Sequence record: NC_052657.1
Reading direction: 5' to 3' (one strand)
Source of the DNA: Escherichia phage muut
Length of the DNA stretch: 64,000 nt
This document shows positions 5,278 through 63,658 of this stretch, piece after piece; position 1 is the stretch's first letter; each line of letters starts with the position of its first letter. The position numbers and the translations under genes were made by a program. Below the pieces are notes generated by a model that was given only the letters and a program-made list of their open reading frames with translations, had not been told where the DNA came from and made no database searches.

Positions 5278-5832
5278 ATGATTCAAGCAACAAAAATCGA
5301 AGATTTGTTGATCATTCAACCTGACGTTTACGGAGATGAACGTGGTTTTTTCTTAGAAAGTTTTAATCAGGCTTTATATGATCAATACATAGGTAAACAA
5401 AACTTTGTCCAAGATAACCATTCACGTTCTATTCGAGGAGTTCTACGTGGGCTTCATTTTCAAAAGAAAAACCCACAAGGGAAGTTAGTACGTTGTGTTC
5501 GTGGTGAAGTTTATGATGTTGCTGTAGATATTAGGGTTGATAGTCCAACATTTGGAGAATGGGTAGGTGTTCTCTTATCTGAAAAGAATAAAACACAATT
5601 TTGGATTCCTCCTGGTTTCGCTCATGGCTTTGTTGTGATTAGTGACATTGCTGATTTTGAATATAAATGTACAGAATATTACGATCCGACTTCAGAGTGT
5701 AGTCTTGCGTGGAATGATCCAGATATCAATATTGATTGGGGTTTTGATTTAATCTTTAATGATATTAATTTTAAACCTATCTTGTCACAAAAAGATCAGG
5801 AAGCCAAAACACTAAAGGAGATCATATTTTGA
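5278..5832 (+). CDS. rmlC: dTDP-4-dehydrorhamnose 3,5-epimerase
   Basis: 184 aa cupin-type; RGLHFQ and DERGFFLE segments typical of RmlC. Confidence 0.85.
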   Translation: MIQATKIEDLLIIQPDVYGDERGFFLESFNQALYDQYIGKQNFVQDNHSRSIRGVLRGLHFQKKNPQGKLVRCVRGEVYDVAVDIRVDSPTFGEWVGVLLSEKNKTQFWIPPGFAHGFVVISDIADFEYKCTEYYDPTSECSLAWNDPDINIDWGFDLIFNDINFKPILSQKDQEAKTLKEIIF

Positions 5833-6659
5833 CAAAATTTTTAATCTTTGGTTCAAAAGGTCAATTAGGACAATCTTTGGCAAAAGTTGCACCAGAAGAT
5901 GTTATTTTGATTGAAGCAAGTGATATAGACATTACCAACTTTAAAGATGTTATGAATAGTCTTGTACAGCACGTGCCTGATGTTGTTGTGAATTGTGCGG
6001 CTTACACGGCAGTAGATAAAGCTGAAGAAGATGTTAACACCTGTATAAATGTTAATGCATACGGTGCAACAAACATTGCCAAAGCATGTAATGATTTACT
6101 GATACAGTTTGTACATATTTCAACAGACTATGTTTTTGATGGGCATGTTGCTGGCACAGAAGATAGTAAAACAAACCCCTTGAACACCTACGGTTACAGT
6201 AAACAATTAGGTGAAACTTTAGTACAAACAGTTTGTCCTACAGCACTTATTATCAGAACAGCTTCTGTTTATAGTGAATTTGGACATAACTTTTTGAAAA
6301 CTATGTTGGAACGCTACAACGGTGGTCAAAAAGAATTTAATGTAGTATGTGATCATTTATCATGTCCTACTTATGCACCTGATCTTGCAGAAACAATTTT
6401 TAAACTTGTAAAAGATGGTGTAAATAGTAAAATTGTACACTATGCAGGTGCAGATTATATTTCTTGGTATGATTTTGCACGAAAGATATTTCTTGTTATA
6501 GATTTATCTGTTACAGTTAATCCTGTATCTGCTTCAACCTATAATTCCAAAGCAGTCAGACCAGCAACATCTTATTTAAAAACAGATCCTACTTTAAATC
6601 CGCGAAGTGTTGATAGCGGTATTGTAAGAACTTTAACTATACTTTTAAACAAGGAGTGA
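5829..6659 (+). CDS. rmlD: dTDP-4-dehydrorhamnose reductase
   Basis: 276 aa; N-terminal FGSKGQLGQ Rossmann motif; last gene of rml operon order. Confidence 0.8.
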   Translation: MTKFLIFGSKGQLGQSLAKVAPEDVILIEASDIDITNFKDVMNSLVQHVPDVVVNCAAYTAVDKAEEDVNTCINVNAYGATNIAKACNDLLIQFVHISTDYVFDGHVAGTEDSKTNPLNTYGYSKQLGETLVQTVCPTALIIRTASVYSEFGHNFLKTMLERYNGGQKEFNVVCDHLSCPTYAPDLAETIFKLVKDGVNSKIVHYAGADYISWYDFARKIFLVIDLSVTVNPVSASTYNSKAVRPATSYLKTDPTLNPRSVDSGIVRTLTILLNKE

Positions 6660-6922
6660 AAATGAATTTTATTATCTACGGTAAACCAAATTGTCCTTTC
6701 TGCACTAACGCTAAGATTCTACTAGAACAGCGTGAACAGGATTTTAAATACCTTACCTTAGATGAAGACTATTCTTTAGATCAGATTCAGACTCTGGTCT
6801 TAGAGAAAACAGGTGTTCTACCACGTACATTTCCTCAGATTTTTGTGGAAGATGGTGAACAGCTAACCCACGTAGGAGGTTTTTCTGAACTACGTGAATT
6901 CATGGCTCAGATTGCGGAGTAA
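6656..6922 (+). CDS. nrdC: glutaredoxin/thioredoxin-like redoxin (RNR hydrogen donor)
   Basis: 88 aa; CPFC active site; GGF near C-terminus. Confidence 0.8.
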   Translation: MKMNFIIYGKPNCPFCTNAKILLEQREQDFKYLTLDEDYSLDQIQTLVLEKTGVLPRTFPQIFVEDGEQLTHVGGFSELREFMAQIAE

Positions 6923-6926
6923 CAAT

Positions 6927-7070
6927 ATGAAAGGTAAACAGAAACGTAAGATCTTTTCTCGTGCTTTGGCAACAGAGCTTAAGTCCCAAACTAAAAAGAC
7001 GAAGCCTAAACGTGAAATGTCTCCTGAACACCTACTGTTTCAAGAGCTAGATCATGGGGAGGGCGACTAA
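6927..7070 (+). CDS. small basic protein (47 aa)
   Basis: ATG 4 nt after nrdC stop; lysine/arginine rich; below ORF-track cut-off. Confidence 0.3.
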   Translation: MKGKQKRKIFSRALATELKSQTKKTKPKREMSPEHLLFQELDHGEGD

Positions 7071-7082
7071 TATAAGGAAAAC

Positions 7083-7583
7083 ATGGCTAAAGTAGTTGAT
7101 GTGTTTGATATGTTACGTTTTGATGAAGGACTAAAGCTAACTGTATATCCTGATACCGAAGGGTATTGGACAGTTGGTATTGGACACCTTCTGACAAAAC
7201 TCAAAGATAAAGCAGAAGCTATACGTATTCTTGATAACTTAGTAGGTAGAAAAACCAATGGGGTTATTACTGAAGCGGAAGCTAGAAGAATCTTTGAGAG
7301 TGACGTAAAGAAAGCGATACAACAAATCCATTCAAGTGCCATATTATCTCCTATTTACGATAAAGTAAGTCCTAATCGTAAAATGGCTATTATTAATATG
7401 GTATTTCAAATGGGATTGAAAGGTGCAGAATCTTTCAAAAATAGCTTGACTTTAGTGAGTAATTCATATTATACTCAAGCCTCTATAAATTTACGTAAAA
7501 GTAAATGGTATCGCCAAACGCCTAATCGCGCAGAGCGTGTAATTCAGGTACTTAAAACTGGAACATTAGACGCTTATAACTAA
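7083..7583 (+). CDS. e: T4-type lysozyme (endolysin)
   Basis: 166 aa; FDMLRFDEGLKL...DTEGYWTVGIGHLLTK matches T4 gpe N-terminus with catalytic Glu/Asp/Thr. Confidence 0.9.
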   Translation: MAKVVDVFDMLRFDEGLKLTVYPDTEGYWTVGIGHLLTKLKDKAEAIRILDNLVGRKTNGVITEAEARRIFESDVKKAIQQIHSSAILSPIYDKVSPNRKMAIINMVFQMGLKGAESFKNSLTLVSNSYYTQASINLRKSKWYRQTPNRAERVIQVLKTGTLDAYN

Positions 7584-7585
7584 AC

Positions 7586-7607
7586 AAAGGGGCGAAAGCC
7601 CCTTTTA
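7586..7607 (+). terminator. rho-independent terminator
   Basis: GGGGC-GAAA-GCCCC hairpin followed by TTTT. Confidence 0.6.
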
Positions 7608-7621
7608 TAAGGAGTGCAAAC

Positions 7622-8374
7622 ATGGGAAATAAAACCGCAAAGGCTCGTCGTCAATCAGCAGCCAATGATGACAAACGTGCCAGTCGTTATGCGGCTAAAG
7701 CAGTAGGAAATGATGATTACCGTCTTGATGAATTTACCCCTGTTGGGAATCAAGAAGCTATTGTAAGAAGCATGGTTTGGAATGATTTAACCATTGTTAA
7801 TGCCCCAGCAGGAACAGGAAAAACGACAACAGCACTATGGAAAGCATTGCAAATGCTTAAAGCTGGTGATTTCAGAAAGTTGATTTTCCTTAAAAACCCG
7901 ACAGAAGTAGGTGATGATCAAATTGGTTTCTTATCTGGAGATAAGACTGATAAACTAGCAGCACATTACGAATCAACTAAAAGAATTTTCCAACAGTTTA
8001 TGACTGCAAATAAATTGGAAAACGATATTGCAAGTGGCAAAATTGAACTTAATATTCCAAACTATGCACTAGGTGCTACGTGGGATAACAGCATTATTCT
8101 TATTGATGAAGTTCAACTTATGTCACCAAATACAGTAAAACTTCTCCTTGAGCGAGCAGGTCTTAATACACGTATTGTCATTATGGGTGATGTTAATCAA
8201 ACATATGCAATTAAACGAAGAGCTAATGGGTTAGGTGATTTGTTAGATCGTGTTGTTCCTATTAACGAAGAAGGAGAAAGGGAAGCTATTGTAGATTTTA
8301 TTGGTTATGTTGAAATGACAACTGCTGATAACCAACGTTCCCGTTTGTCTCAGTTCATCACGGAAGTATATTAA
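7622..8374 (+). CDS. phoH: PhoH-like ATPase
   Basis: 250 aa; Walker A GTGKTTTA; size and context as in T4-like phages. Confidence 0.85.
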   Translation: MGNKTAKARRQSAANDDKRASRYAAKAVGNDDYRLDEFTPVGNQEAIVRSMVWNDLTIVNAPAGTGKTTTALWKALQMLKAGDFRKLIFLKNPTEVGDDQIGFLSGDKTDKLAAHYESTKRIFQQFMTANKLENDIASGKIELNIPNYALGATWDNSIILIDEVQLMSPNTVKLLLERAGLNTRIVIMGDVNQTYAIKRRANGLGDLLDRVVPINEEGEREAIVDFIGYVEMTTADNQRSRLSQFITEVY

Positions 8375-8410
8375 TAATTACAAGGCAAGGATGCCTGTTA
8401 TGGAGGTTAA

Positions 8411-8902
8411 ATGACGCTAATTGAGATTGATCGCAATGGTATTGATGAATGCTATCAAGCTGGCTTAGTTAAGCCGAATGAGTTTAGACAGATTTATATT
8501 GACAAGATTGAAAAAGAAATATCTCTTCGTTTAGAGAACATGGCAACTTTGCAAAAAGTTCAGATGTTTTTTAGTTGGTTGAAAGGAGAGGATTGGCTAA
8601 CTAAATATTACCAGGAATTATCTGATAGTCAAGAAGGCTTGTTTGAGTGTATAATAAATGTAGCTGGGTCTAATTCAGAGTTACTCCTGATTGATGAAGA
8701 AGATTCTAAACTTCTTTTTCTTAGCAGTATTTTTCACAAGAAATCTATGTTAGTAAGAAATTGCAGTGATTTACTAAATCATCCACTAACAAGAACTAAT
8801 AAAATTCTTGTGGATAAAGAAACACTAAGAGCTATTGATTACCTCCGTAAATATGTAAGCGGTGGTAAAGCAGTCCTTAAAACACTACAGGAGGAAGTAT
8901 AA
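8411..8902 (+). CDS. hypothetical protein (163 aa)
   Basis: GGAGG RBS; no motif recognised. Confidence 0.5.
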   Translation: MTLIEIDRNGIDECYQAGLVKPNEFRQIYIDKIEKEISLRLENMATLQKVQMFFSWLKGEDWLTKYYQELSDSQEGLFECIINVAGSNSELLLIDEEDSKLLFLSSIFHKKSMLVRNCSDLLNHPLTRTNKILVDKETLRAIDYLRKYVSGGKAVLKTLQEEV

Positions 8903-9555
8903 TGACAACAATTATTGCAACACGTAACAAAATTTTGTCTGACGGTAAGGTAACAGTAGGTAGTCGTGTAGACACTTTAAACTTCAAGAAAGTGCGTAAA
9001 ATTGGGGACTACCTTGTTGGTGGTGCAGGACGTCTGTCTTCTATCCTGACTTTCTTTTCTTGGTTTGAACAAAACTTACAATGCCAGGCAGCACAAGAGA
9101 CAATCCCAGGTTTGGTGATCCAGTCAGATCCCGATAAAGAAGATGAAGAGTTTGTGGCATTGGTTGTTCATCCAGACGGTAAAATTTATATGCACGAGGG
9201 TAATAATCCAACGCGAGCATATCCTTTAACTGAAGATTATTATGCTGTTGGTAGTGGGGCAGATTTTGCTTTAGCAGCTTTAGATGCAGGGGCAACTCCA
9301 GAAGAAGCGATGGAAGTTGCAAAACTGCGAGATGCTTTTTCCGGCGGTGAAACTTTTATCGAAGAGATCGAAGAACAACTGGAGTTAACAGCGGAAGATA
9401 TTCTGAACTTCAGCAAGGAGCAACTAATTAGTATGCTGTTGACTGGTGATCCTGATAGCGATGAAGCTGAAAGTATTTTAGCAGAAATGAAAGAATCACA
9501 AGAAAAAGTATTGACAGTCTCTGAAAAACTTGATAAAGTGTCCTCTGATAATTAA
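8902..9555 (+). CDS. HslV/proteasome-beta-like peptidase
   Basis: N-terminal MTTII (Thr nucleophile after Met), GG.G and AVGSGADFALAAL segments. Confidence 0.5.
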   Translation: MTTIIATRNKILSDGKVTVGSRVDTLNFKKVRKIGDYLVGGAGRLSSILTFFSWFEQNLQCQAAQETIPGLVIQSDPDKEDEEFVALVVHPDGKIYMHEGNNPTRAYPLTEDYYAVGSGADFALAALDAGATPEEAMEVAKLRDAFSGGETFIEEIEEQLELTAEDILNFSKEQLISMLLTGDPDSDEAESILAEMKESQEKVLTVSEKLDKVSSDN

Positions 9556-9565
9556 TCTAGTATAA

Positions 9566-9585
9566 ACCCCCTCAAGGGGGTTATT
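9566..9585 (+). terminator. terminator-like hairpin
   Basis: CCCCCT-CAA-GGGGG hairpin then TTATT; directly before next RBS. Confidence 0.35.
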
Positions 9586-9595
9586 AGGAGGAGAT

Positions 9596-10024
9596 ATGTT
9601 ACCAGTACCTGTAACCTTTGTAGAAAAAGCCTACTACTCTTTAGAACAAAACTGTAAAAGAGCTAAAAATTTTATTGAAAGTTTAGCAGAACAGCGTTAC
9701 ACTGTATCTAAAAAGGGATGGTTCAGAACTTCACAATATTCAGTCAACCCTTTCGGAGAAGTTCGTGTGTTGTACGGCAACACAGAAAATATCTTAGAAA
9801 GAATGTTAGAACTAGATAGGATCTCCTCCTGTGATTATCAACTGTTGAAATTTTACGATGTGTCAGAAAACATTAAAAACTTTCTTGACGATTTATGTAA
9901 ACGAAAAACAGAAGAAGATACAATACCAGTATCTATGGAAGAATTAACGTTCTTAAGAGATATTATGGTTTTTGAAGAAAACCCTGAAATCACAAAAGAG
10001 GAGATTTTAAGTAGTGGCAAATAA
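9596..10024 (+). CDS. hypothetical protein (142 aa)
   Basis: GGAGG RBS; no motif recognised. Confidence 0.5.
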   Translation: MLPVPVTFVEKAYYSLEQNCKRAKNFIESLAEQRYTVSKKGWFRTSQYSVNPFGEVRVLYGNTENILERMLELDRISSCDYQLLKFYDVSENIKNFLDDLCKRKTEEDTIPVSMEELTFLRDIMVFEENPEITKEEILSSGK

Positions 10025-10523
10025 GTATGATCGTCCACCAACTGATTACTATCCTACTCCACAAAAATGTATAAATGCATTATTTAGTGTAATAGATTTT
10101 AATAACCTTAAAGAAGAAGGTTTTATTTTTGCAGAACCGTGTAAAGGCGCTGCTGCTGCAATTTATCAACATTTTCCAGAAGGATCAGAATATTGTGAGT
10201 TAGAAGAAGGGAAGGATTATTTTAACCACGAATGGCATACTAAGCCGGATATTATAATCACAAATCCACCATTCAGACTTGCACTTGAGTTCTTGCAAAA
10301 GAGCTTAAAAGAAGCAGACGTTTGCATATACTTGTTGCGTCTTGGGTTCCTAGAGTCTATTAAACGAAGGGAATTCCATAAACAGAACCCACCAACAAAT
10401 TTGATTGTTCTTTCTGAACGACCATCTTTTGTTGCAGGTGGTACTGATAAGACAGCATATGCTTGGTACGTCTACGACCCAAAAAACAGGCTGGGTTTAA
10501 CTCAACCTTTCTATTTTGTTTAA
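10014..10523 (+). CDS. dam: DNA N6-adenine methyltransferase (small phage Dam type)
   Basis: 169 aa; IITNPPF motif IV; YYPTP N-terminal segment. Confidence 0.6.
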   Translation: MANKYDRPPTDYYPTPQKCINALFSVIDFNNLKEEGFIFAEPCKGAAAAIYQHFPEGSEYCELEEGKDYFNHEWHTKPDIIITNPPFRLALEFLQKSLKEADVCIYLLRLGFLESIKRREFHKQNPPTNLIVLSERPSFVAGGTDKTAYAWYVYDPKNRLGLTQPFYFV

Positions 10524-10536
10524 GAGGAGCATTTTT

Positions 10537-10767
10537 ATGACCGAGAAATTTATTGTTACTATGGAACTCACCTTTGATGAAGAAGATTTTGATCTTCACG
10601 TATCAACTAAAGCAGATAACATTCACACGACACAGAGTGTTGCAATCGCTATGTTCTTTAAGCAAGCAATTGCAAAACAAGCTGAAGTGTGTGCTGGTTT
10701 AGCTGTAGAGTACGCAGAAGTTGTCAAGGTTCTTGAAAGTGCTCGCAACAACGATTGGGATGAATAA
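10537..10767 (+). CDS. hypothetical protein (76 aa)
   Basis: ATG with AAGAGGAG RBS 21 nt inside ORF-track ORF. Confidence 0.45.
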   Translation: MTEKFIVTMELTFDEEDFDLHVSTKADNIHTTQSVAIAMFFKQAIAKQAEVCAGLAVEYAEVVKVLESARNNDWDE

Positions 10768-10970
10768 TGGCATACAATTACTATCTGGTATATTTTAACG
10801 AAACTAAGAAAAAAGACACAGGAACTAATGTTTATGCGGAATCGGAAGAACACGCAAAAGCTATTGGTTCAGTGCTTCTTTCTAGAATAGCAGGTGAAGA
10901 AATTCCTGTAGAGGCTATCTTTGCAGAAGTTGACCCTGGTATTCAAGAAGATGATATTACCACTACTTAA
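10767..10970 (+). CDS. hypothetical protein (67 aa)
   Basis: ATGA overlap with previous gene. Confidence 0.45.
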   Translation: MAYNYYLVYFNETKKKDTGTNVYAESEEHAKAIGSVLLSRIAGEEIPVEAIFAEVDPGIQEDDITTT

Positions 10971-10973
10971 CTG

Positions 10974-11020
10974 TTGACTTTAACATTGAGGTAGTGCATA
11001 CTTCCTGTAACAGAACAGGA
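10974..11020 (+). promoter_or_regulatory. sigma70-like promoter plus 5' stem-loop
   Basis: TTGACT-17-CATACT, then TCCTGT-AACAGAA-ACAGGA hairpin, then GGAGGG RBS. Confidence 0.45.
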
Positions 11021-11027
11021 GGGTATT

Positions 11028-11690
11028 ATGAAGTTTGTACTGTATCATCGACTTTCTAAGAAGAAACAACAAGGCAACCAGTATGGTATAGAATCACAGG
11101 AAGCAGATATCCAACGCTTCCTGGATTCACAAGAAAATTATACTATTGTAGGTAGCTTTGCAGAGTTTTATTCTGGTAAAGGCGATTGGAAGCAACGTAG
11201 AGAGCTTGTAAAAGCTGTTAATCTTTGCAAAGAAACAGGTGCTACACTTGTTGTTGCTAAGGTTGACCGTCTTGGACGTAACACAGCTTCTGTTGCAACC
11301 TTGTTAGAGATGATTAATGTACGGATAGCCACTATGCCCTCCGCTGAAAATATGATAATAAATATTTTAGCAGTTCTGGCAGAAGAAGAGGCTCGTGCAA
11401 TATCTGATCGTGTTAAGAAGAGCCTTAAGGTAGCAAAAGCGAAGGGAACGCTTCTTGGTGCAGCAAACCCTAAATACAAAAGAACAGATTATACGAAAAC
11501 GGAAGAAGCAAAACGCTCAAAAGAGTTTGCACTTTCTTTAAAAGATTCTTTAGTTGCATACAGAGCTTGTAAAACGCCATATATGACGATTGCAAAGCAT
11601 CTGAATGAATCAGGAAAGAGAACTATTCGTGGGAGTTTGTTCGATGCCAAAGCGGTACAACGTCTTTGTGCAAAATTGAATATTAAATAA
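11028..11690 (+). CDS. serine recombinase (resolvase/invertase family)
   Basis: 220 aa; YHRLSKKKQ (catalytic Ser), SGKG...R, VVAKVDRLGRN motifs. Confidence 0.7.
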   Translation: MKFVLYHRLSKKKQQGNQYGIESQEADIQRFLDSQENYTIVGSFAEFYSGKGDWKQRRELVKAVNLCKETGATLVVAKVDRLGRNTASVATLLEMINVRIATMPSAENMIINILAVLAEEEARAISDRVKKSLKVAKAKGTLLGAANPKYKRTDYTKTEEAKRSKEFALSLKDSLVAYRACKTPYMTIAKHLNESGKRTIRGSLFDAKAVQRLCAKLNIK

Positions 11691-11699
11691 GGAGGAAAC

Positions 11700-11903
11700 A
11701 TGGCAGTTCAATCTTTTGAGGAGACTGTTAAAAAACAATTCCTATCGAAGCGAGCGATGGTTGAATTTTTGCATTTTCTCGAAGTAGATAGGGTACTTAT
11801 TGAGACTACACCAGATGGTAACTGGCAAGTCTCGTATATTGCCACCAGGCATATCGTAGACAGTACGAAAGAAGAAAATTCGGAAGTTACGGTTGCTAGT
11901 TAA
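11700..11903 (+). CDS. hypothetical protein (67 aa)
   Basis: GGAGG RBS. Confidence 0.45.
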   Translation: MAVQSFEETVKKQFLSKRAMVEFLHFLEVDRVLIETTPDGNWQVSYIATRHIVDSTKEENSEVTVAS

Positions 11904-11914
11904 AGGAGTTAAAT

Positions 11915-12487
11915 ATGCGTTTAGCTTTTAACGGGAAGATAAGCACAGCAAACATATTGTCAGCAGTAGGATTATTAGGTAAAAAATTCACACCTTTCAG
12001 TTTACCAGTTTGTGTAGATTTTGATCATGTGTTTGATATTAATAATCCTTCACGTTGTATCGCCAGAAGTAATATTGATAACCCAAGTGAAAATCTGTTT
12101 TATATTACTAAACCATCCCAAGCAATTTTGAATCAATGGGAAGCAGGTCTGATTAAACCAGGTAAATATTTTGCATTACTACCTTGTAAATCATTGGCTA
12201 TAGAGGACAGTCTAAACTATGCAAACAATCTTGTTGTTACAGCATTCATTGTCTCAGAAAAAGAAGAAACTGCGGCACTTGCAAATACTGTTAAATCTTT
12301 GTATGATGCTTTGGGTGTTACTTACACTACCTTCGTTTGTGAAGATATTCCACATTGCGTTGAATTTGTGGTGAATGGTGTAACTGTATGTCGTGTAGAA
12401 ACAACTCAAGACGAAGACGTTTTTATTACTGTAGCCGATGTAATATCTGAACCTGTGTTTAGCTACGCAGTTTCATTAACACATTAA
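11915..12487 (+). CDS. hypothetical protein (190 aa)
   Basis: AAGGAG RBS. Confidence 0.5.
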   Translation: MRLAFNGKISTANILSAVGLLGKKFTPFSLPVCVDFDHVFDINNPSRCIARSNIDNPSENLFYITKPSQAILNQWEAGLIKPGKYFALLPCKSLAIEDSLNYANNLVVTAFIVSEKEETAALANTVKSLYDALGVTYTTFVCEDIPHCVEFVVNGVTVCRVETTQDEDVFITVADVISEPVFSYAVSLTH

Positions 12488-45662: not shown

Positions 45663-46790
45663 TTAAAACACACTTGCCAAAGTTGCACCATTGGTGATAG
45701 TTGGTTCCAGAACAATACGGAAAGAATCTTCTGGATCATCACTAAACACAACGATTTTACCGCCTGTAATAAGATCTGCTTTCATTTTTGTCGCATTCAA
45801 TGGAATTCGAGCATCGCCTTCATCATCAAAAACCACGTAAGAGCTATTAGCAAGGGCTTCTTTAGAATCTGCATCACTTGGAGATGACAAGTACACGTCC
45901 AGTGTGCACGAACCACCTAAAAAGATTGCAGGTGTGAAGTTATGCCAACTAGATACCCAGCTAACTTTCTGAAGTTTCCCATTAATAACAACACTGCTGA
46001 TATCCCATTTATTACCACCACCTAAAGAAACACCCATCATAGAGATGCATTCTTTAAAGGATAAATCAGGGTAGAAATTAAGTTCTTCTACTATACCTTG
46101 GATCACATCAAAGGACAACTCTAAACTTACATCCCAAAGTCTTTGGAAATTATCAAAGTGTGCTTTGTTATCCAGGTTTTTATCTAAATAGTCCATCATA
46201 GTTTCTAGTGAGATTTTATCATAATTAAAATTATAAAACACACGACTAGGACGATTTAAAAAGAATTCAGAGATAAAGCCACTGTTTTTAGTCAGAATAA
46301 ACAGTTTATTACCACTGCCAGTACCATCTAACAAAGTGAGAAGTGCTTCTTGATCTTGTTTCTTCTCATATACTTTATCAAATTCATCAAAAATAATCAC
46401 TGCTTTGTCTGTGATCTTGCTAATAAGTTCAATGAAATTAGCATCACTGTAGGCTTGAGTAACCATAATAGTTGGAATACCTTCTTCTACAAGGTCACGA
46501 CTAATGAGTTTGGCTAACATAGTTTTACCACTGCCCTTAGTGCCTGTCAGGAGCAAACCTGTATTTTTACCTTGTGCACTCCGGCGATGGAATGTACGAA
46601 TAACGTGATTTGCTCGTTTTTCTGTTTCACCATACAGAACATCCGGTACACCTGTTAGATTACCACGGCTTAAAAAGTAATTGCCAAGGGGATCACGACT
46701 AACAGTATAGAATCCAGGTGGAAGATAGTTAGATTCCACGCCCATATCTTTATTTACACTTACAATATCACCATAAATCGTGTATTTCAT
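45663..46790 (-). CDS. P-loop ATPase, paralog 1
   Basis: Walker A GTKGSGKT, Walker B IIFDEFDK; ~50% identical to 62498..63658. Confidence 0.6.
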   Translation of the reverse strand: MKYTIYGDIVSVNKDMGVESNYLPPGFYTVSRDPLGNYFLSRGNLTGVPDVLYGETEKRANHVIRTFHRRSAQGKNTGLLLTGTKGSGKTMLAKLISRDLVEEGIPTIMVTQAYSDANFIELISKITDKAVIIFDEFDKVYEKKQDQEALLTLLDGTGSGNKLFILTKNSGFISEFFLNRPSRVFYNFNYDKISLETMMDYLDKNLDNKAHFDNFQRLWDVSLELSFDVIQGIVEELNFYPDLSFKECISMMGVSLGGGNKWDISSVVINGKLQKVSWVSSWHNFTPAIFLGGSCTLDVYLSSPSDADSKEALANSSYVVFDDEGDARIPLNATKMKADLITGGKIVVFSDDPEDSFRIVLEPTITNGATLASVF

Positions 46791-54622: not shown

Positions 54623-55099
54623 ATGTCTAAACGTTTTGGTCGTAATCAAAAAAGAAAGTTAAGTGCTCAACTAGCAGCTTTGCAAAAAGAGGTTAACACT
54701 TTACAAAAAAGTGTTTGTGAACTTAAGGAACAAAACCAACTTGAAAAAGAGTGTATCCAGCTTACACAGGAAGTTATTGGTGAGTATTTTCCTTCACTAG
54801 TTCCTAAGAAGGTGGCTCTTAGGGAAAATCTACCTTTTACCTTGTCCTTGATGCAAGCAAATAATAGATTCCAAACTGAAACTGATGATTTGATGTTTGC
54901 AATGCATCAATTACATGGTTTAGAATATACAGCACAAGTGGATAAACTTCGTAACATGTTATATGTGCGGGTAGAAACACCTAAAGGTGAGACAGTAGCT
55001 TTTAATTATAATTTCCAACAGCTACCTGATCATATTATTGAACAAATTTTAAAACGAGATTTTGTTCCTATGCTTGTTAAACAAATTAAGAGAGGTTGA
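54623..55099 (+). CDS. hypothetical protein with coiled-coil N-terminus (158 aa)
   Basis: GGGGGA RBS. Confidence 0.5.
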   Translation: MSKRFGRNQKRKLSAQLAALQKEVNTLQKSVCELKEQNQLEKECIQLTQEVIGEYFPSLVPKKVALRENLPFTLSLMQANNRFQTETDDLMFAMHQLHGLEYTAQVDKLRNMLYVRVETPKGETVAFNYNFQQLPDHIIEQILKRDFVPMLVKQIKRG

Positions 55100-55100
55100 A

Positions 55101-57875
55101 ATGGCTAAGAAAGAGTTGAGCTTCACTCCAACAGAAGAGCAAACAGCTATTAAGGAGGCTTTTCCAGACCATCGCTTTTTAACTATCCAAGCTAAATCTG
55201 GATCAGGCAAAACGTCAACACTTTATTTGCTGGCTAACAGTACAGAAGATCGCATTCTTTACTTAGCTTTCAATAAAAGCATGGCAGAAGAAGCACGACG
55301 TAAGATGCCACCAAATGTAGAATGCCGTACATTGCATTCTATTTGCTATCAATTCCTGGATCATCGTTTACGTGCAAAACTGTCACGACCAGAAGGACAG
55401 TATGTTAACGTTGCAGGTACAGGTAGTGAGATAGCAAAGAAATTTAAGATTAATAATCTTATTGATAAACGAGGGAAAACACTTTTAACTCGTGCCATGA
55501 TTGGTTTAATGATCAAGCAAACAGTAGGTAAGTTTGAATTTTCGGATGATCCTTTTATCAGCCGTAAACATTTTCCTAGTGTACATCTTGCAGATATTAA
55601 AAGAAAAGGTATTAACGAACACAAACTAATTACAGAAGTAGTTAAGTATGCAAAACAATTGTGGCGAGAGCGCATTGATCCTAATACAGATACTTTGATG
55701 ACGCATGACACCTATGTAAAATTGTTTGAATTGTCTGGTGCTGATCTTGGTTATGATATTATTTTTGGTGATGAATTCCAGGATGTTAACCCTGCATTCT
55801 TGTCTATTTTGCGAAATGCTAAATCTGCAAAACAAATTGTGGTAGTTGGCGATGAATTCCAATGTGTGTCAGAAAACACGGTACTTAATACCGAGAATGG
55901 TCAGGTTACAATGAAAGACCTGCAAATCGGTGATAAGGTAGAGTCTTATTCTAATGGTAAAGTTACATTTAGAAAAGTAACAAATAAAACTTTATCTACA
56001 CGTACAAAAGGTAGGAATATTATTACTACTAAAGGTAAAACTTTAGATATGACACATAATCATCGTATTTGGGCTTCACCTTATGTTCTGAAAGATGATC
56101 AAATGGTGGTATATCTAATGTGGAGGAAAGATTTAGGTTTCCGAGTAGGAATTACTAACAAATTCGATGATAAAGAAGGTTTTTCTAAACTGGGGCAACG
56201 TACACGTTCTGAAAAAGCACAGAAATTATGGGTGTTGGATATTGTTGAAAATCGCGAAGCTGCTATGGAAAAAGAAATGGCATACAGTTTACAATATGGC
56301 ATTCCTACTTGTGTATTTGAAGCAAGTTCACGCGGCATTAATCAAGAAAGGATCAATAACATCTTTGAACAATTCGGACAAAATGGTTTTAAACTTTTAG
56401 AGGATAAAGATTATCATTTTGCTTATCCACACTGGCACAGCATCAATTGTGCAGTAGATGAAAGAAAAATGCTAACAGTGACTTTGCGAGCACAAGGTTG
56501 TAAAGGAACACAAGTTAGTTTTGAGTGGACAGAAAGTGAAATGCCGATCTATTCTTCACTGATTAAAGCAGGTGTAAGCGTAAGTGCTGCTAAATTGGAA
56601 GGTCGTTACCGTGTACGTAAATATTTCAATTCTTATCGTGAAGCATTGAGTTTTGCACAAAAGATCCTTGAAATAGTTCCGTTTGCATCTTTAAAAGAAT
56701 GCATGTCCTCTGTGAACAGTGCCAAATATAACTTAATTCCGGCAGCGGGTTTGTTTAAAGGCATGTCTGTGTTGGTAAAAGATGGTGATACTGTAACGGC
56801 AGAAGAGATTGTGGACATTGTAGATAGTGAGGGTATCTATTATGATATTGAAGTAGAGGATACTGCTAACTTCTTTGGCAATGAAATTCTTAGCCACAAC
56901 TGCATTTATCAATTTAGAGGTAGCTCTAATATGATGATTGAAACAGCTAAGTATGGGGCAGAACTTCCATTAACTGCTTGCTTCCGTTTTGGCCCCAAAG
57001 TGGCAAACATTGCCAATATGATTTTAAGCGATAAAGAACCTTTGCGTCATCCTTTGGTTGGTAAAGGCTTTGATACTGTAGTAGGTAGCTACAAATCAGA
57101 TGTTGTAGACTATACAAAACCTTACACTATCATCTTTCGCAAGAATTTAACCTTGCTTATGGAGGCAATGGATCGTATTGCAGATGGGGAAGAAATTATT
57201 ATTAACGTAGATACCAGGGATTTTATCTCTATGGTAGATAGTGTTAATGCTCTTCGGAGAGGAGATATTGAGAAAGTAAAACATGAAACTGTATTACCTT
57301 ACGCAGACTGGGATGAATTTGTTGAGTGTGCAGAGGCTGATCCAGATGCTAAACGCTTGTTAAACATCGTAGTTTCTGGTAAGGCGAACACTATAGCACA
57401 TACACTTAGAACGCATAGAAATTCTCCTACAGCAAAAGTCACACTTACTACAGCACACAAGTCTAAAGGTTTGGAGTGGGATCAGGTTATTGTTGCTAAT
57501 GATTTTCCTTCCAACTATGATAAAAAGACTGGTGAATGGGTAGGACTGGAAGAGGCAGAGCGAAACCTACTGTATGTAGCGCATACCCGTTGTGTTAAAT
57601 GCTTACAATGGAACACAACCGTACAGGAGATTATAGATATCAATCGTGTTGCAACAGAGAAAGTACCAACAAGCACCACTTTACCGATCAATGGTATTAA
57701 ACTTGGTGTATTTGGCGCTGGCACATCTCGAAAAACTGTAGAAAAATTTGTTGCAGATTCTTTTGATGGTAACTATAATCATGCACAAGCATATGAGAGT
57801 TGGCTAGAGGAAGGTGAAGGTGATTTCTTAGGTGAAATAAATCTTTTACCAGACATAAATAAACTGGTAAACTAA
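55101..57875 (+). CDS. UvrD/Rep-like SF1 DNA helicase interrupted by an intein (precursor 924 aa)
   Basis: Walker A SGSGKT; motif II FGDEFQD; motif III VVVGDEFQ / CIYQFRG split by the intein; motif V/VI TTAHKSKGLEWD, YVAHTRC. Confidence 0.75.
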   Translation: MAKKELSFTPTEEQTAIKEAFPDHRFLTIQAKSGSGKTSTLYLLANSTEDRILYLAFNKSMAEEARRKMPPNVECRTLHSICYQFLDHRLRAKLSRPEGQYVNVAGTGSEIAKKFKINNLIDKRGKTLLTRAMIGLMIKQTVGKFEFSDDPFISRKHFPSVHLADIKRKGINEHKLITEVVKYAKQLWRERIDPNTDTLMTHDTYVKLFELSGADLGYDIIFGDEFQDVNPAFLSILRNAKSAKQIVVVGDEFQCVSENTVLNTENGQVTMKDLQIGDKVESYSNGKVTFRKVTNKTLSTRTKGRNIITTKGKTLDMTHNHRIWASPYVLKDDQMVVYLMWRKDLGFRVGITNKFDDKEGFSKLGQRTRSEKAQKLWVLDIVENREAAMEKEMAYSLQYGIPTCVFEASSRGINQERINNIFEQFGQNGFKLLEDKDYHFAYPHWHSINCAVDERKMLTVTLRAQGCKGTQVSFEWTESEMPIYSSLIKAGVSVSAAKLEGRYRVRKYFNSYREALSFAQKILEIVPFASLKECMSSVNSAKYNLIPAAGLFKGMSVLVKDGDTVTAEEIVDIVDSEGIYYDIEVEDTANFFGNEILSHNCIYQFRGSSNMMIETAKYGAELPLTACFRFGPKVANIANMILSDKEPLRHPLVGKGFDTVVGSYKSDVVDYTKPYTIIFRKNLTLLMEAMDRIADGEEIIINVDTRDFISMVDSVNALRRGDIEKVKHETVLPYADWDEFVECAEADPDAKRLLNIVVSGKANTIAHTLRTHRNSPTAKVTLTTAHKSKGLEWDQVIVANDFPSNYDKKTGEWVGLEEAERNLLYVAHTRCVKCLQWNTTVQEIIDINRVATEKVPTSTTLPINGIKLGVFGAGTSRKTVEKFVADSFDGNYNHAQAYESWLEEGEGDFLGEINLLPDINKLVN
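55863..56900 (+). mobile_element. intein (346 aa) with central endonuclease-size insert
   Basis: Begins Cys (CVSENTVL), block B TLDMTHNH, ends ...FFGNEILSHN followed by Cys+1; in frame. Confidence 0.7.
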
Positions 57876-62497: not shown

Positions 62498-63658
62498 ATG
62501 TTTACAGTATTCGGCAATCAAATCTTCCTGCGTCAGAAATCTGGTACAGATATTGAAGAAATTCCAGCAGGAACTTTTGGTGTAGGTGTTACTCAAAGTG
62601 GTGAGTTCTTCCTGTATCCTAAAAACGATATGGAAGTGCCTTCAGTAACATACGGTGATACTGATGATAAATCAGAACGTATTATCAAAACGTTCCTTAG
62701 CCGCAAAGGTAAAAACACAGGTGTTCTCCTTGAGGGTACGAAAGGTAGCGGTAAAACTTTGCAAGCTAAAATGCTGTCTTCTGCTCTTCGTGAAATGGGT
62801 ATTCCTACTATTTCTATCGGCAGTGCTTTTAATGGCGAAGGTTTTATCAATTTTATGTCTAAAATCACACAACCTGTGATGATTATGATCGATGAATTTG
62901 ATAAACTGTATGCTGAAAAAGATGCACAAGATGGTTTGCTTACCCTGTTGGATGGTGTTGGTGGCTACGACAAACTGTTTGTATTGACTAAAAATGATGG
63001 TTATGTATCAGAATTTTTGCGTAATCGTCCTAGCCGTATTTTCTACAGTTTTAGCTATAAGAAACTACCTAAAGCTACTATGGATGATTATCTGGCTAAA
63101 AATCTGGAGAACAAAGCCTTCTTACCAGATTTTGAAACGCTTTATAATCTCTCCGTGGATTTGAACTTTGATATTGTTCAGTCATTAGTAGAAGAACTTA
63201 ACCGTTACCCTAATGACAAATTCTCTGATGCACTTGCATTGATGGGTATCAGTATTACTGAACACCGCTATGCTGCAAAAGAGGTTAAACTTCTGAAAGT
63301 TAACGGTGTAGATCGTACAGGAGATGTTTCGTCAGATACCGATATTGACGGTATGACAGCACAAGGTTTGTTTAGCGGTAATCGTTATGTTGTAGCTGTA
63401 GACCATAAACTAGGTGAAGAGCATCTTCCTGAAATGGAAGGGATTGTTACCGTAGAAGATAAAGATGAAGAAGGTGACTACTACTGGGGTGTAGACCGTA
63501 TCTTGCTAACGTATGATGAAAAACACATTCGTACAATGGGTGGTGACGGTTATCACTTTATGTTCACCGATGATAAAGGTAACAACATTGAAGTTGTTAT
63601 TAAAAACAAAGAACGTAAAAACTACACAGAGTATGTGTTTGGTGGTCGTTCTTACTAA
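62498..63658 (+). CDS. P-loop ATPase, paralog 2
   Basis: Walker A GTKGSGKT, Walker B IMIDEFDK; paralog of 45663..46790. Confidence 0.6.
   Translation: MFTVFGNQIFLRQKSGTDIEEIPAGTFGVGVTQSGEFFLYPKNDMEVPSVTYGDTDDKSERIIKTFLSRKGKNTGVLLEGTKGSGKTLQAKMLSSALREMGIPTISIGSAFNGEGFINFMSKITQPVMIMIDEFDKLYAEKDAQDGLLTLLDGVGGYDKLFVLTKNDGYVSEFLRNRPSRIFYSFSYKKLPKATMDDYLAKNLENKAFLPDFETLYNLSVDLNFDIVQSLVEELNRYPNDKFSDALALMGISITEHRYAAKEVKLLKVNGVDRTGDVSSDTDIDGMTAQGLFSGNRYVVAVDHKLGEEHLPEMEGIVTVEDKDEEGDYYWGVDRILLTYDEKHIRTMGGDGYHFMFTDDKGNNIEVVIKNKERKNYTEYVFGGRSY

Follow-up and report, generated by a model that had tools for sequence, protein, structure and literature searches.

The gene at positions 8902-9555 (+ strand) of a 64,000-nucleotide stretch of Escherichia phage muut (sequence record NC_052657.1; this whole stretch is referred to as the window, and positions are counted from its first letter) probably encodes a non-structural, proteasome-like threonine peptidase with an intact predicted active site, which would belong to a phage branch of the HslV/BPH group and resemble the proteins known as PPH and RPC. 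The open reading frame (ORF) begins with ATG, ends with TAA, codes for 217 amino acids and is the orthologue of phi92 gp058; it was found exactly where the original prediction, an earlier note made on this DNA, had placed it. The short strings quoted in that note were also located in the translation, namely MTTII at residues 1-5, VGGAGR (the "GG.G" segment) at residues 39-44 and AVGSGADFALAAL at residues 115-127. Direct reading of the sequence gives a Shine-Dalgarno site, GGAGGA, at 8890-8895 (+), 6 nt 5′ of the ATG, and the ATG overlaps the stop codon of the preceding ORF in the string TAATG (8900-8904), so placed that translation of the peptidase gene may be coupled to that of the upstream ORF.

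The assignment of the gene product to the proteasome-like N-terminal nucleophile (Ntn) hydrolases is supported by profile searches and by a structural model. The protein was matched to PHROG 1040 ("peptidase HslV family") with E=1.3e-61 and to the Pfam family PF00227 (Proteasome) with 25.1 bits, where the gathering cutoff is 22.4; the margin is narrow and is backed by the PHROG match. The phmmer search against the PDB gave 13 distinct HslV chains with E=5e-8 to 4e-5, the best being T. maritima HslV (1M4Y, E=5e-8). Because of these three sets of scores the match is taken to be far beyond chance. The profile built from 58 family members retrieved 7596 cluster representatives at E<=1e-3. The AlphaFold2 monomer model, for which 58 homologues were used, has a mean predicted local distance difference test (pLDDT) score of 83.5, and the score is above 90 over most of residues 1-150. 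When this model was compared with the PDB by Foldseek, 1041 matches were obtained at E<=1e-3, and each of the best 50 is HslV, a 20S proteasome subunit or BPH, with a probability of 1.00. As modelled, the protein has the proteasome beta/HslV fold, and the Ntn-hydrolase fold, whose absence had been named beforehand as the refutation of the prediction, is present in the model.

The residues of the predicted active site were assigned by alignment to E. coli HslV, and their conservation was counted over 228 aligned sequences. The codon of Thr2, the predicted nucleophile (Thr1) after removal of the initiator Met, lies at 8905-8907 (+), and Thr stands in this column in 215 of the sequences. Asp14 (8941-8943), equivalent to HslV Asp17, and Lys30 (8989-8991), equivalent to Lys33, mark the two ends of the segment 8941-8991 (+), complete the predicted catalytic triad and are conserved as Asp in 220/228 and as Lys in 219/228. 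The loop G40-G41-A42-G43 (9019-9030, +) is aligned to the glycine of the oxyanion hole (Gly45/47), with G43 kept in 225/228, and G117-S118-G119 (9250-9258, +) corresponds to the Gly-Ser-Gly motif which holds HslV Ser124 (first Gly 228/228; Ser 210/228, with Thr in 17; second Gly 227/228). The start Met-Thr-Thr is found in 200 of the 226 retrieved relatives, which implies that there is no propeptide and that loss of the Met would bare the nucleophile. Methionine aminopeptidase prefers small second residues, and the host enzyme would be expected to remove the Met and expose Thr1. The fold together with the conserved Thr1, Asp17, Lys33 and Gly-Ser-Gly thus backs the earlier idea of an Ntn-hydrolase peptidase with Thr directly after the initiator Met.

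The same idea was worded as "HslV/proteasome-like", and here a correction is needed, since the fold and the catalytic residues agree with it and membership of HslV proper does not. On the NCBIfam equivalog models NF003964 and TIGR03692 the protein scored 34.0 and 31.6 bits against cutoffs of 137 and 157.75, that is more than 100 bits under both, and E. coli HslV, run as a control on the same models, scored 303.3 and 287.5 bits. Judged by sequence, the phage peptidase is HslV-like and no orthologue of HslV. All-vs-all BLAST was done on the 226 retrieved relatives together with the query and E. coli HslV. At E=1e-40 the peptidase family forms one cluster of 138 sequences with a median length of 221 aa; by E=1e-20 it merges with 62 proteins of less than 160 aa (about 140 aa) which also start with MTT, and E. 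coli HslV is not drawn in until E=1e-10.

With bacterial HslV (ClpQ; E. coli 1E94, H. influenzae 1G3I, T. maritima 1M4Y) the phage peptidase has about 22-30% identity, and both have in common the fold, Thr1/Asp17/Lys33, the Gly-Ser-Gly motif and the lack of a propeptide beyond the Met. The differences are spread over the whole chain. In the phage peptidase the N-terminal hairpin is 4 residues shorter, an acidic coil stands in place of helix H2, 11 residues are inserted ahead of the GSG motif, helix H3 is 9 residues shorter and a C-terminal extension of 62 residues is added. Between the oxyanion loop and the core strand that follows, the phage peptidase has 41 residues, E. coli HslV 54 and the short proteins 29. 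HslV is a dodecamer of two hexameric rings and is normally encoded with hslU in one operon, whereas no HslU gene is found adjacent to the phage peptidase gene or elsewhere in the phage genome.

The placement within the HslV/BPH group was done with reference to the survey by Fuchs, Alva and Lupas in 2021, in which 22 new proteasome-like groups were described (PMC8665760). In that survey PPH and RPC are the sole groups besides connectase without a first-pair helix, i.e. H2; PPH proteins are phage-borne, of about 140 residues and without an extension, and RPC proteins have a PPH-like core followed by an extra C-terminal region without match to known structures and are listed for Proteobacteria only (PMC8665760). 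Like PPH and RPC, the window protein is of Group I (HslV/BPH-like), has Thr directly after Met, lacks H2 and has a compact core. It differs from the ~140-aa PPH in its length of 217 aa and its extension; the extension, with 62 residues and no PDB or Pfam match, would suit RPC, although RPC is listed for Proteobacteria only and the present family looks phage-borne. A place in the PPH/RPC branch, with an architecture closest to RPC, fits these features and the close links to the short proteins, and the short MTT-starting relatives of about 140 aa may be PPH proteins.

The segment which replaces H2 is also the segment which, in HslV, lines the pore. In the model, helix H1 covers residues 45-67 and is followed by a coil at 68-84 and a strand at 85-89. 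The coil holds the acidic loop D76-P-D-K-E-D-E-E-F84 (9127-9153, +). Over the 58 family members D81 is invariant, position 82 is Glu or Asp in all 58, position 83 is Glu or Asp in 55, and F84 is kept in 57. Residues 74-84 (QSDPDKEDEEF) carry a net charge of -5, which is also the family median, and the aligned pore-lining segment of E. coli HslV (WRTDRMLRKL) carries +3. HslV, for which HslU acts as the gate, is described as having a short pore loop, and BPH as having a long, highly acidic one and apparently no unfoldase (Fuchs et al., PMC8665760). BPH of Thiobacillus denitrificans (5OVS/5OVT) is a Group I homologue and is among the best fold matches of the phage peptidase, with Foldseek template modelling (TM) scores of 0.48-0.57 against 0.53-0.69 for HslV. 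The phage family is like BPH in the acidic loop at the aligned position and in having no cognate unfoldase gene, and it differs in that BPH retains H2, which the model of the phage peptidase lacks.

The pocket of HslV that receives the HslU tail was compared position by position. In the E. coli and H. influenzae proteins it is formed by Phe54, Phe57, Ala79, Lys80 and Gln114 (PMC6429459). In the alignment the two positions on H1 are still hydrophobic (Phe54 to L49, Phe57 to F52), positions 79/80 fall in the non-helical acidic segment, and the region of 114 holds the 11-residue insertion. HslV Arg35 is aligned to R32, a residue shared by 90% or more of the family members, and the position aligned to HslV Lys28, a residue which we take to have a role in HslU binding, is variable and is Thr in the phage peptidase. 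Docking of HslU in the canonical way appears unlikely for the phage peptidase, because positions 79/80 lie in the lost H2 and because the region of 114 carries the insertion.

The C-terminal extension takes in residues 156-217 (9367-9552, +). It is predicted to hold three helices, at pLDDT 47-78, and has a net charge of -12. It opens with a putative helix-turn-helix motif, E-L-T-x-E-x-L-x-x-F-S-K-E-Q-L-L-x-x-L-L-T-G (9382-9447, +), whose helices are modelled at residues 164-169 and 172-181. The consensus [DE]-[LI]-T-x-E-x-[LA]-x-x-[FLM]-[ST]-[KR]-E-[QE]-L-[LI] opens the extension in every member that has one, and among the 58 sequences the residues are kept as follows: T163 (46/58), E165 (49/58), E173 (50/58) and L175 (53/58). 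The sequence after the motif is variable across the family and is 29-224 residues long. Searches of the extension gave no Pfam family and no PDB sequence match. A SAP/HeH-like domain was considered and set aside, as the PDB search with a 23-sequence profile reached no better than E ~1, and no Pfam domain was found in the extension of the window protein or in five longer relatives. Some members are 280-380 aa long (P0061, P0069 and relatives; L010 6001-7140) and have extra C-terminal modules without Pfam match, including a CxxC...CxxC-like stretch such as KGVCKFCGK or KGVCGKCGH; the peptidase core is hence joined to differing C-terminal modules in different phages.

The family is known from many phages. 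By megablast, the region 7000-12000 has 99.9% identity over its full length with Escherichia phage vB_EcoM_ESCO9 and 54 phage records in all reach at least 95% identity, among them phi92-like myoviruses of the genus Justusliebigvirus, with genomes of about 146 kb; the window belongs to this genus. More than 50 records of Justusliebigvirus contain a protein with 98.6-100% identity to that of the window, and the phAPEC8-type versions (Phapecoctavirus) have about 72% identity to it; phi92 gp058 and these Justusliebigvirus and Phapecoctavirus orthologues are the same gene as that of the window, without difference. Homologues were found in 165 phage records, with 34-100% identity among the matches listed, most of which cover at least 80% of the protein. 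The 90%-identity cluster includes phi92 gp058 itself (YP_009012389.1, "peptidase HslV family"), and the labels found in GenBank are "peptidase HslV family", "putative proteasome component", "putative 20S proteasome" and "HslV family peptidase". Because near-identical proteins already bear these labels, the proteasome-like annotation of the gp058 family is public and its finding here is a rediscovery. Phage proteasome homologues are in any case widespread, since they make up 49 clusters by structure in BFVD and clusters by sequence in the thousands, and were catalogued in 2021. What is added by the present analysis is the correction that the protein is not HslV, the lack of a cognate unfoldase and the argument against capsid maturation, along with the acidic loop, the C-terminal motif and a conserved neighbour as experimental handles. 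The family is carried by well-studied and tractable E. coli phages (phi92, BASEL members), and for this reason it is a convenient entry point.

The family members lie on contigs of roughly 135-156 kb, and the cluster members on contigs of ~145-155 kb. A scan of 185,579 species with one genome each gave a single match, on a contig of 425 bp, with patterns that were narrow and by which distant relatives are missed. That match (JAPMLR010000072.1, L007, in a Lysobacteraceae assembly) has 75% identity with the peptidase, and the assembly was most likely contaminated with phage DNA. The family looks phage-borne, being almost confined to phage-sized contigs. The hosts named in the records are Escherichia, Klebsiella, Vibrio, Aeromonas and Shewanella, all Gammaproteobacteria, apart from a few doubtful labels. 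The four records MG065639, MG065645, MG065656 and MG065689 ("Campylobacter phage" A150, A145, C3 and A110a; host C. jejuni) are 98.7% identical over the 5-kb query, and their C. jejuni host labels are doubtful. One further record, P0043 of Escherichia phage VEcB (vecB_055, 267 aa), has a PhoH Pfam domain and yet matches 71% of the peptidase with 100% identity; a frameshift or an annotation artefact has probably fused neighbouring genes in this record.

The surroundings of the gene were analyzed for possible partners. The upstream neighbour (8411-8902, +), here called ORF X, codes for 163 aa, belongs to phrog_14834 and is phi92 gp059; its model is confident, all-alpha and without match to a known fold, and it is a possible partner of the peptidase. 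The PhoH-like ATPase gene at 7622-8374 (+; PF02562, E=1e-35) belongs to the same block by synteny, and the genes of this block serve nucleotide metabolism and host takeover. The conserved order is ribonucleotide reductase (RNR), glutaredoxin, lysozyme, PhoH, an ORF of about 155-170 aa and the peptidase; it is kept in metagenomic relatives whose peptidases have 42-51% identity and in divergent Klebsiella phages, and also in Vibrio and Aeromonas phages with different intervening ORFs. No homologue of ORF X was detectable in the Vibrio phages. In Vibrio phage VnaP, whose peptidase is a distant homologue, the same non-structural block also contains, about 4 kb downstream, a gene for a ClpP-like proteolytic subunit (L005 10869-11465).

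In phage VivaForever, taken as the complete reference genome, the annotation includes no HslU/ClpX-type gene. The only AAA (PF00004) proteins are two paralogues of about 380 aa, both of phrog_2376, which in the window are encoded at 45663-46790 (-) and 62498-63658 (+), and these were considered as partners and rejected. The family phrog_2376 occurs in 378 phage records, mostly without the peptidase and many of them of Gram-positive phages; among curated models, those of Hda, DnaC, IstB and RuvB come nearest, and not those of HslU or ClpX, and the PDB matches are confined to the generic P-loop region of p97. Because of this distribution and these nearest models the AAA proteins are not counted as partners. 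A phrog_2376 protein is labelled "FtsH-like protease" in one BASEL record, a single copy is present in phAPEC8-type phages, and the family reaches SPO1-like and jumbo phages.

It is proposed that the peptidase is made during infection and would act as a non-structural enzyme in the cytoplasm of the infected cell. By likeness to HslV and BPH it would form rings in which the acidic loop lines the pore, and it would need no dedicated phage unfoldase, cutting peptides, unfolded proteins or host and phage proteins that are specifically recruited. Both ring formation and working without a dedicated unfoldase are probable. The C-terminal extension, which by the same analogy would face away from the ring, and possibly ORF X, may be the elements of recruitment or regulation. 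A more specific version is put forward as a tentative suggestion of low probability: an unfoldase-independent mini-proteasome with a D-E-E-F pore, whose outward helix-turn-helix extension, perhaps together with gp059, would recruit specific host proteins early in infection. Defence or stress-response factors are the candidate targets under this suggestion. If it is true, an enzyme of the proteasome family would be selecting its substrates in a new way, and phages would have a new tool of counter-defence or host takeover.

Several points weigh against a peptidase of the PPH/RPC kind that works in this way. The coil that replaces H2 is modelled at moderate confidence only (pLDDT 66-80). The subgroup was drawn from architecture and from clustering with unnamed proteins of about 140 aa, in a set without the PPH (WP_042125023) and RPC (WP_140207863) references. 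The pairing of ORF X with the peptidase may be mere general synteny among related phages. The literature search on phage HslV-like proteins gave mentions at the level of annotation or remarks on the absent HslU, and no functional study. Finally, Gammaproteobacteria, to our knowledge, carry HslU, and as the hosts are Gammaproteobacteria, dependence on host HslU is possible.

One rival reading is a hybrid protease, in which the phage rings would dock host HslU, or mix or compete with host HslV, so that host HslUV proteolysis is redirected or blocked during infection. HslV chains are the closest characterised relatives of the phage protein, the pocket positions L49/F52 are hydrophobic and R32 is conserved, the phage has no unfoldase of its own, and its known hosts are all Gammaproteobacteria, all of which would suit such a hybrid. 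Against this, the pocket is remodelled in two of its three walls (Ala79/Lys80 in the lost H2, and Gln114 by the hairpin insertion), the position equivalent to Lys28 is variable, and the protein scores more than 100 bits under the HslV equivalog cutoffs. We regard the hybrid as unlikely.

It was also considered that the protein may not be a general protease, and may instead be a specific ligase or transpeptidase like connectase, an amidohydrolase acting on non-protein substrates, or a binding or decoy protein in which the conserved active site is used for one event of processing, of itself or of a target. The proteasome-like family does include a monomeric ligase, connectase, and some of the new homologues may not build multi-layered rings (PMC8665760); loss of H2 and gain of the C-terminal extension could alter oligomerisation, and the variable C-terminal modules of the relatives suggest target-specific recruitment. 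On the other hand, helices H3 and H4, which make the ring-ring contacts in HslV and 20S beta (PMC8665760), are retained in the AlphaFold2 model, the insertion over the active site which defines connectase is absent from it, and every one of the closest matches by structure is a peptidase that forms rings. A function other than that of a general protease is given a low probability, a shade below that of the hybrid protease.

The original prediction had offered virion maturation as a role, that is a prohead protease which trims scaffold or capsid proteins, and this proposal fared badly; turnover of host proteins, the other role it had offered, may apply. In favour of virion maturation, the phage is a large myovirus and the protein a predicted protease; the annotated head module of the reference genome includes no prohead protease, and its 370-aa ORF, which lies between the genes for the portal and the major head protein, is without Pfam match and has PHROG 2970, of unknown function, as its sole match. 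The genes of prohead proteases stand in the head module, with the portal gene on one side and the scaffold or major capsid gene on the other. In the reference genome the peptidase gene is at 63.8 kb and the head module at about 21-30 kb, on the opposite strand and some 36 kb away. The peptidase gene sits instead in a block of early type, among genes of nucleotide metabolism, DNA modification and phosphatases, and its placement by RNR, glutaredoxin, lysozyme and PhoH is maintained in distant relatives. The paper of 2026 in which the intact phi92 virion is described by cryo-EM does not mention gp58, by a search of its text, which is weak negative evidence. We know of no prohead protease with the proteasome fold. 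A role in capsid maturation is very unlikely because of the position of the gene and the absence of gp58 from the cryo-EM account. That the ORF arose by chance, or is a decayed and functionless pseudogene, can practically be dismissed in view of the strong Shine-Dalgarno site, the homologues in 165 phage records and the near-invariant active-site columns across 228 sequences, the last of which already rule out a pseudogene.

Short gaps between the genes of the block contain GC-rich hairpins. In the 40-nt gap 3′ of the peptidase stop the palindromic hairpin CCCCCTCAAGGGGG lies at 9567-9579, without assigned strand, although the scan had placed it on the minus strand. Others are at 7586-7605 after the lysozyme gene and at 8383-8396 after PhoH; AAAGGGGCTTTCGCCCCTTT and CCCCCTCAAGGGGG are examples. 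The three hairpins may be weak terminators or elements of RNA stability or processing. The scan of positions 5500-12000 for promoters and terminators gave counts at the level of chance.

One more observation concerns the UvrD-like helicase of 937 aa encoded at 55062-57875 (+). It contains an intein-like insertion at residues ~267-613, with the bounds "C|VSENTVL..." and "...LSHN|C"; the Pfam scores are 34.0 bits for Intein_splicing (cutoff 35.8) and 28.4 for Hint (cutoff 29.7). The orthologue in VivaForever is only 578 aa long, and the insertion therefore varies between strains.

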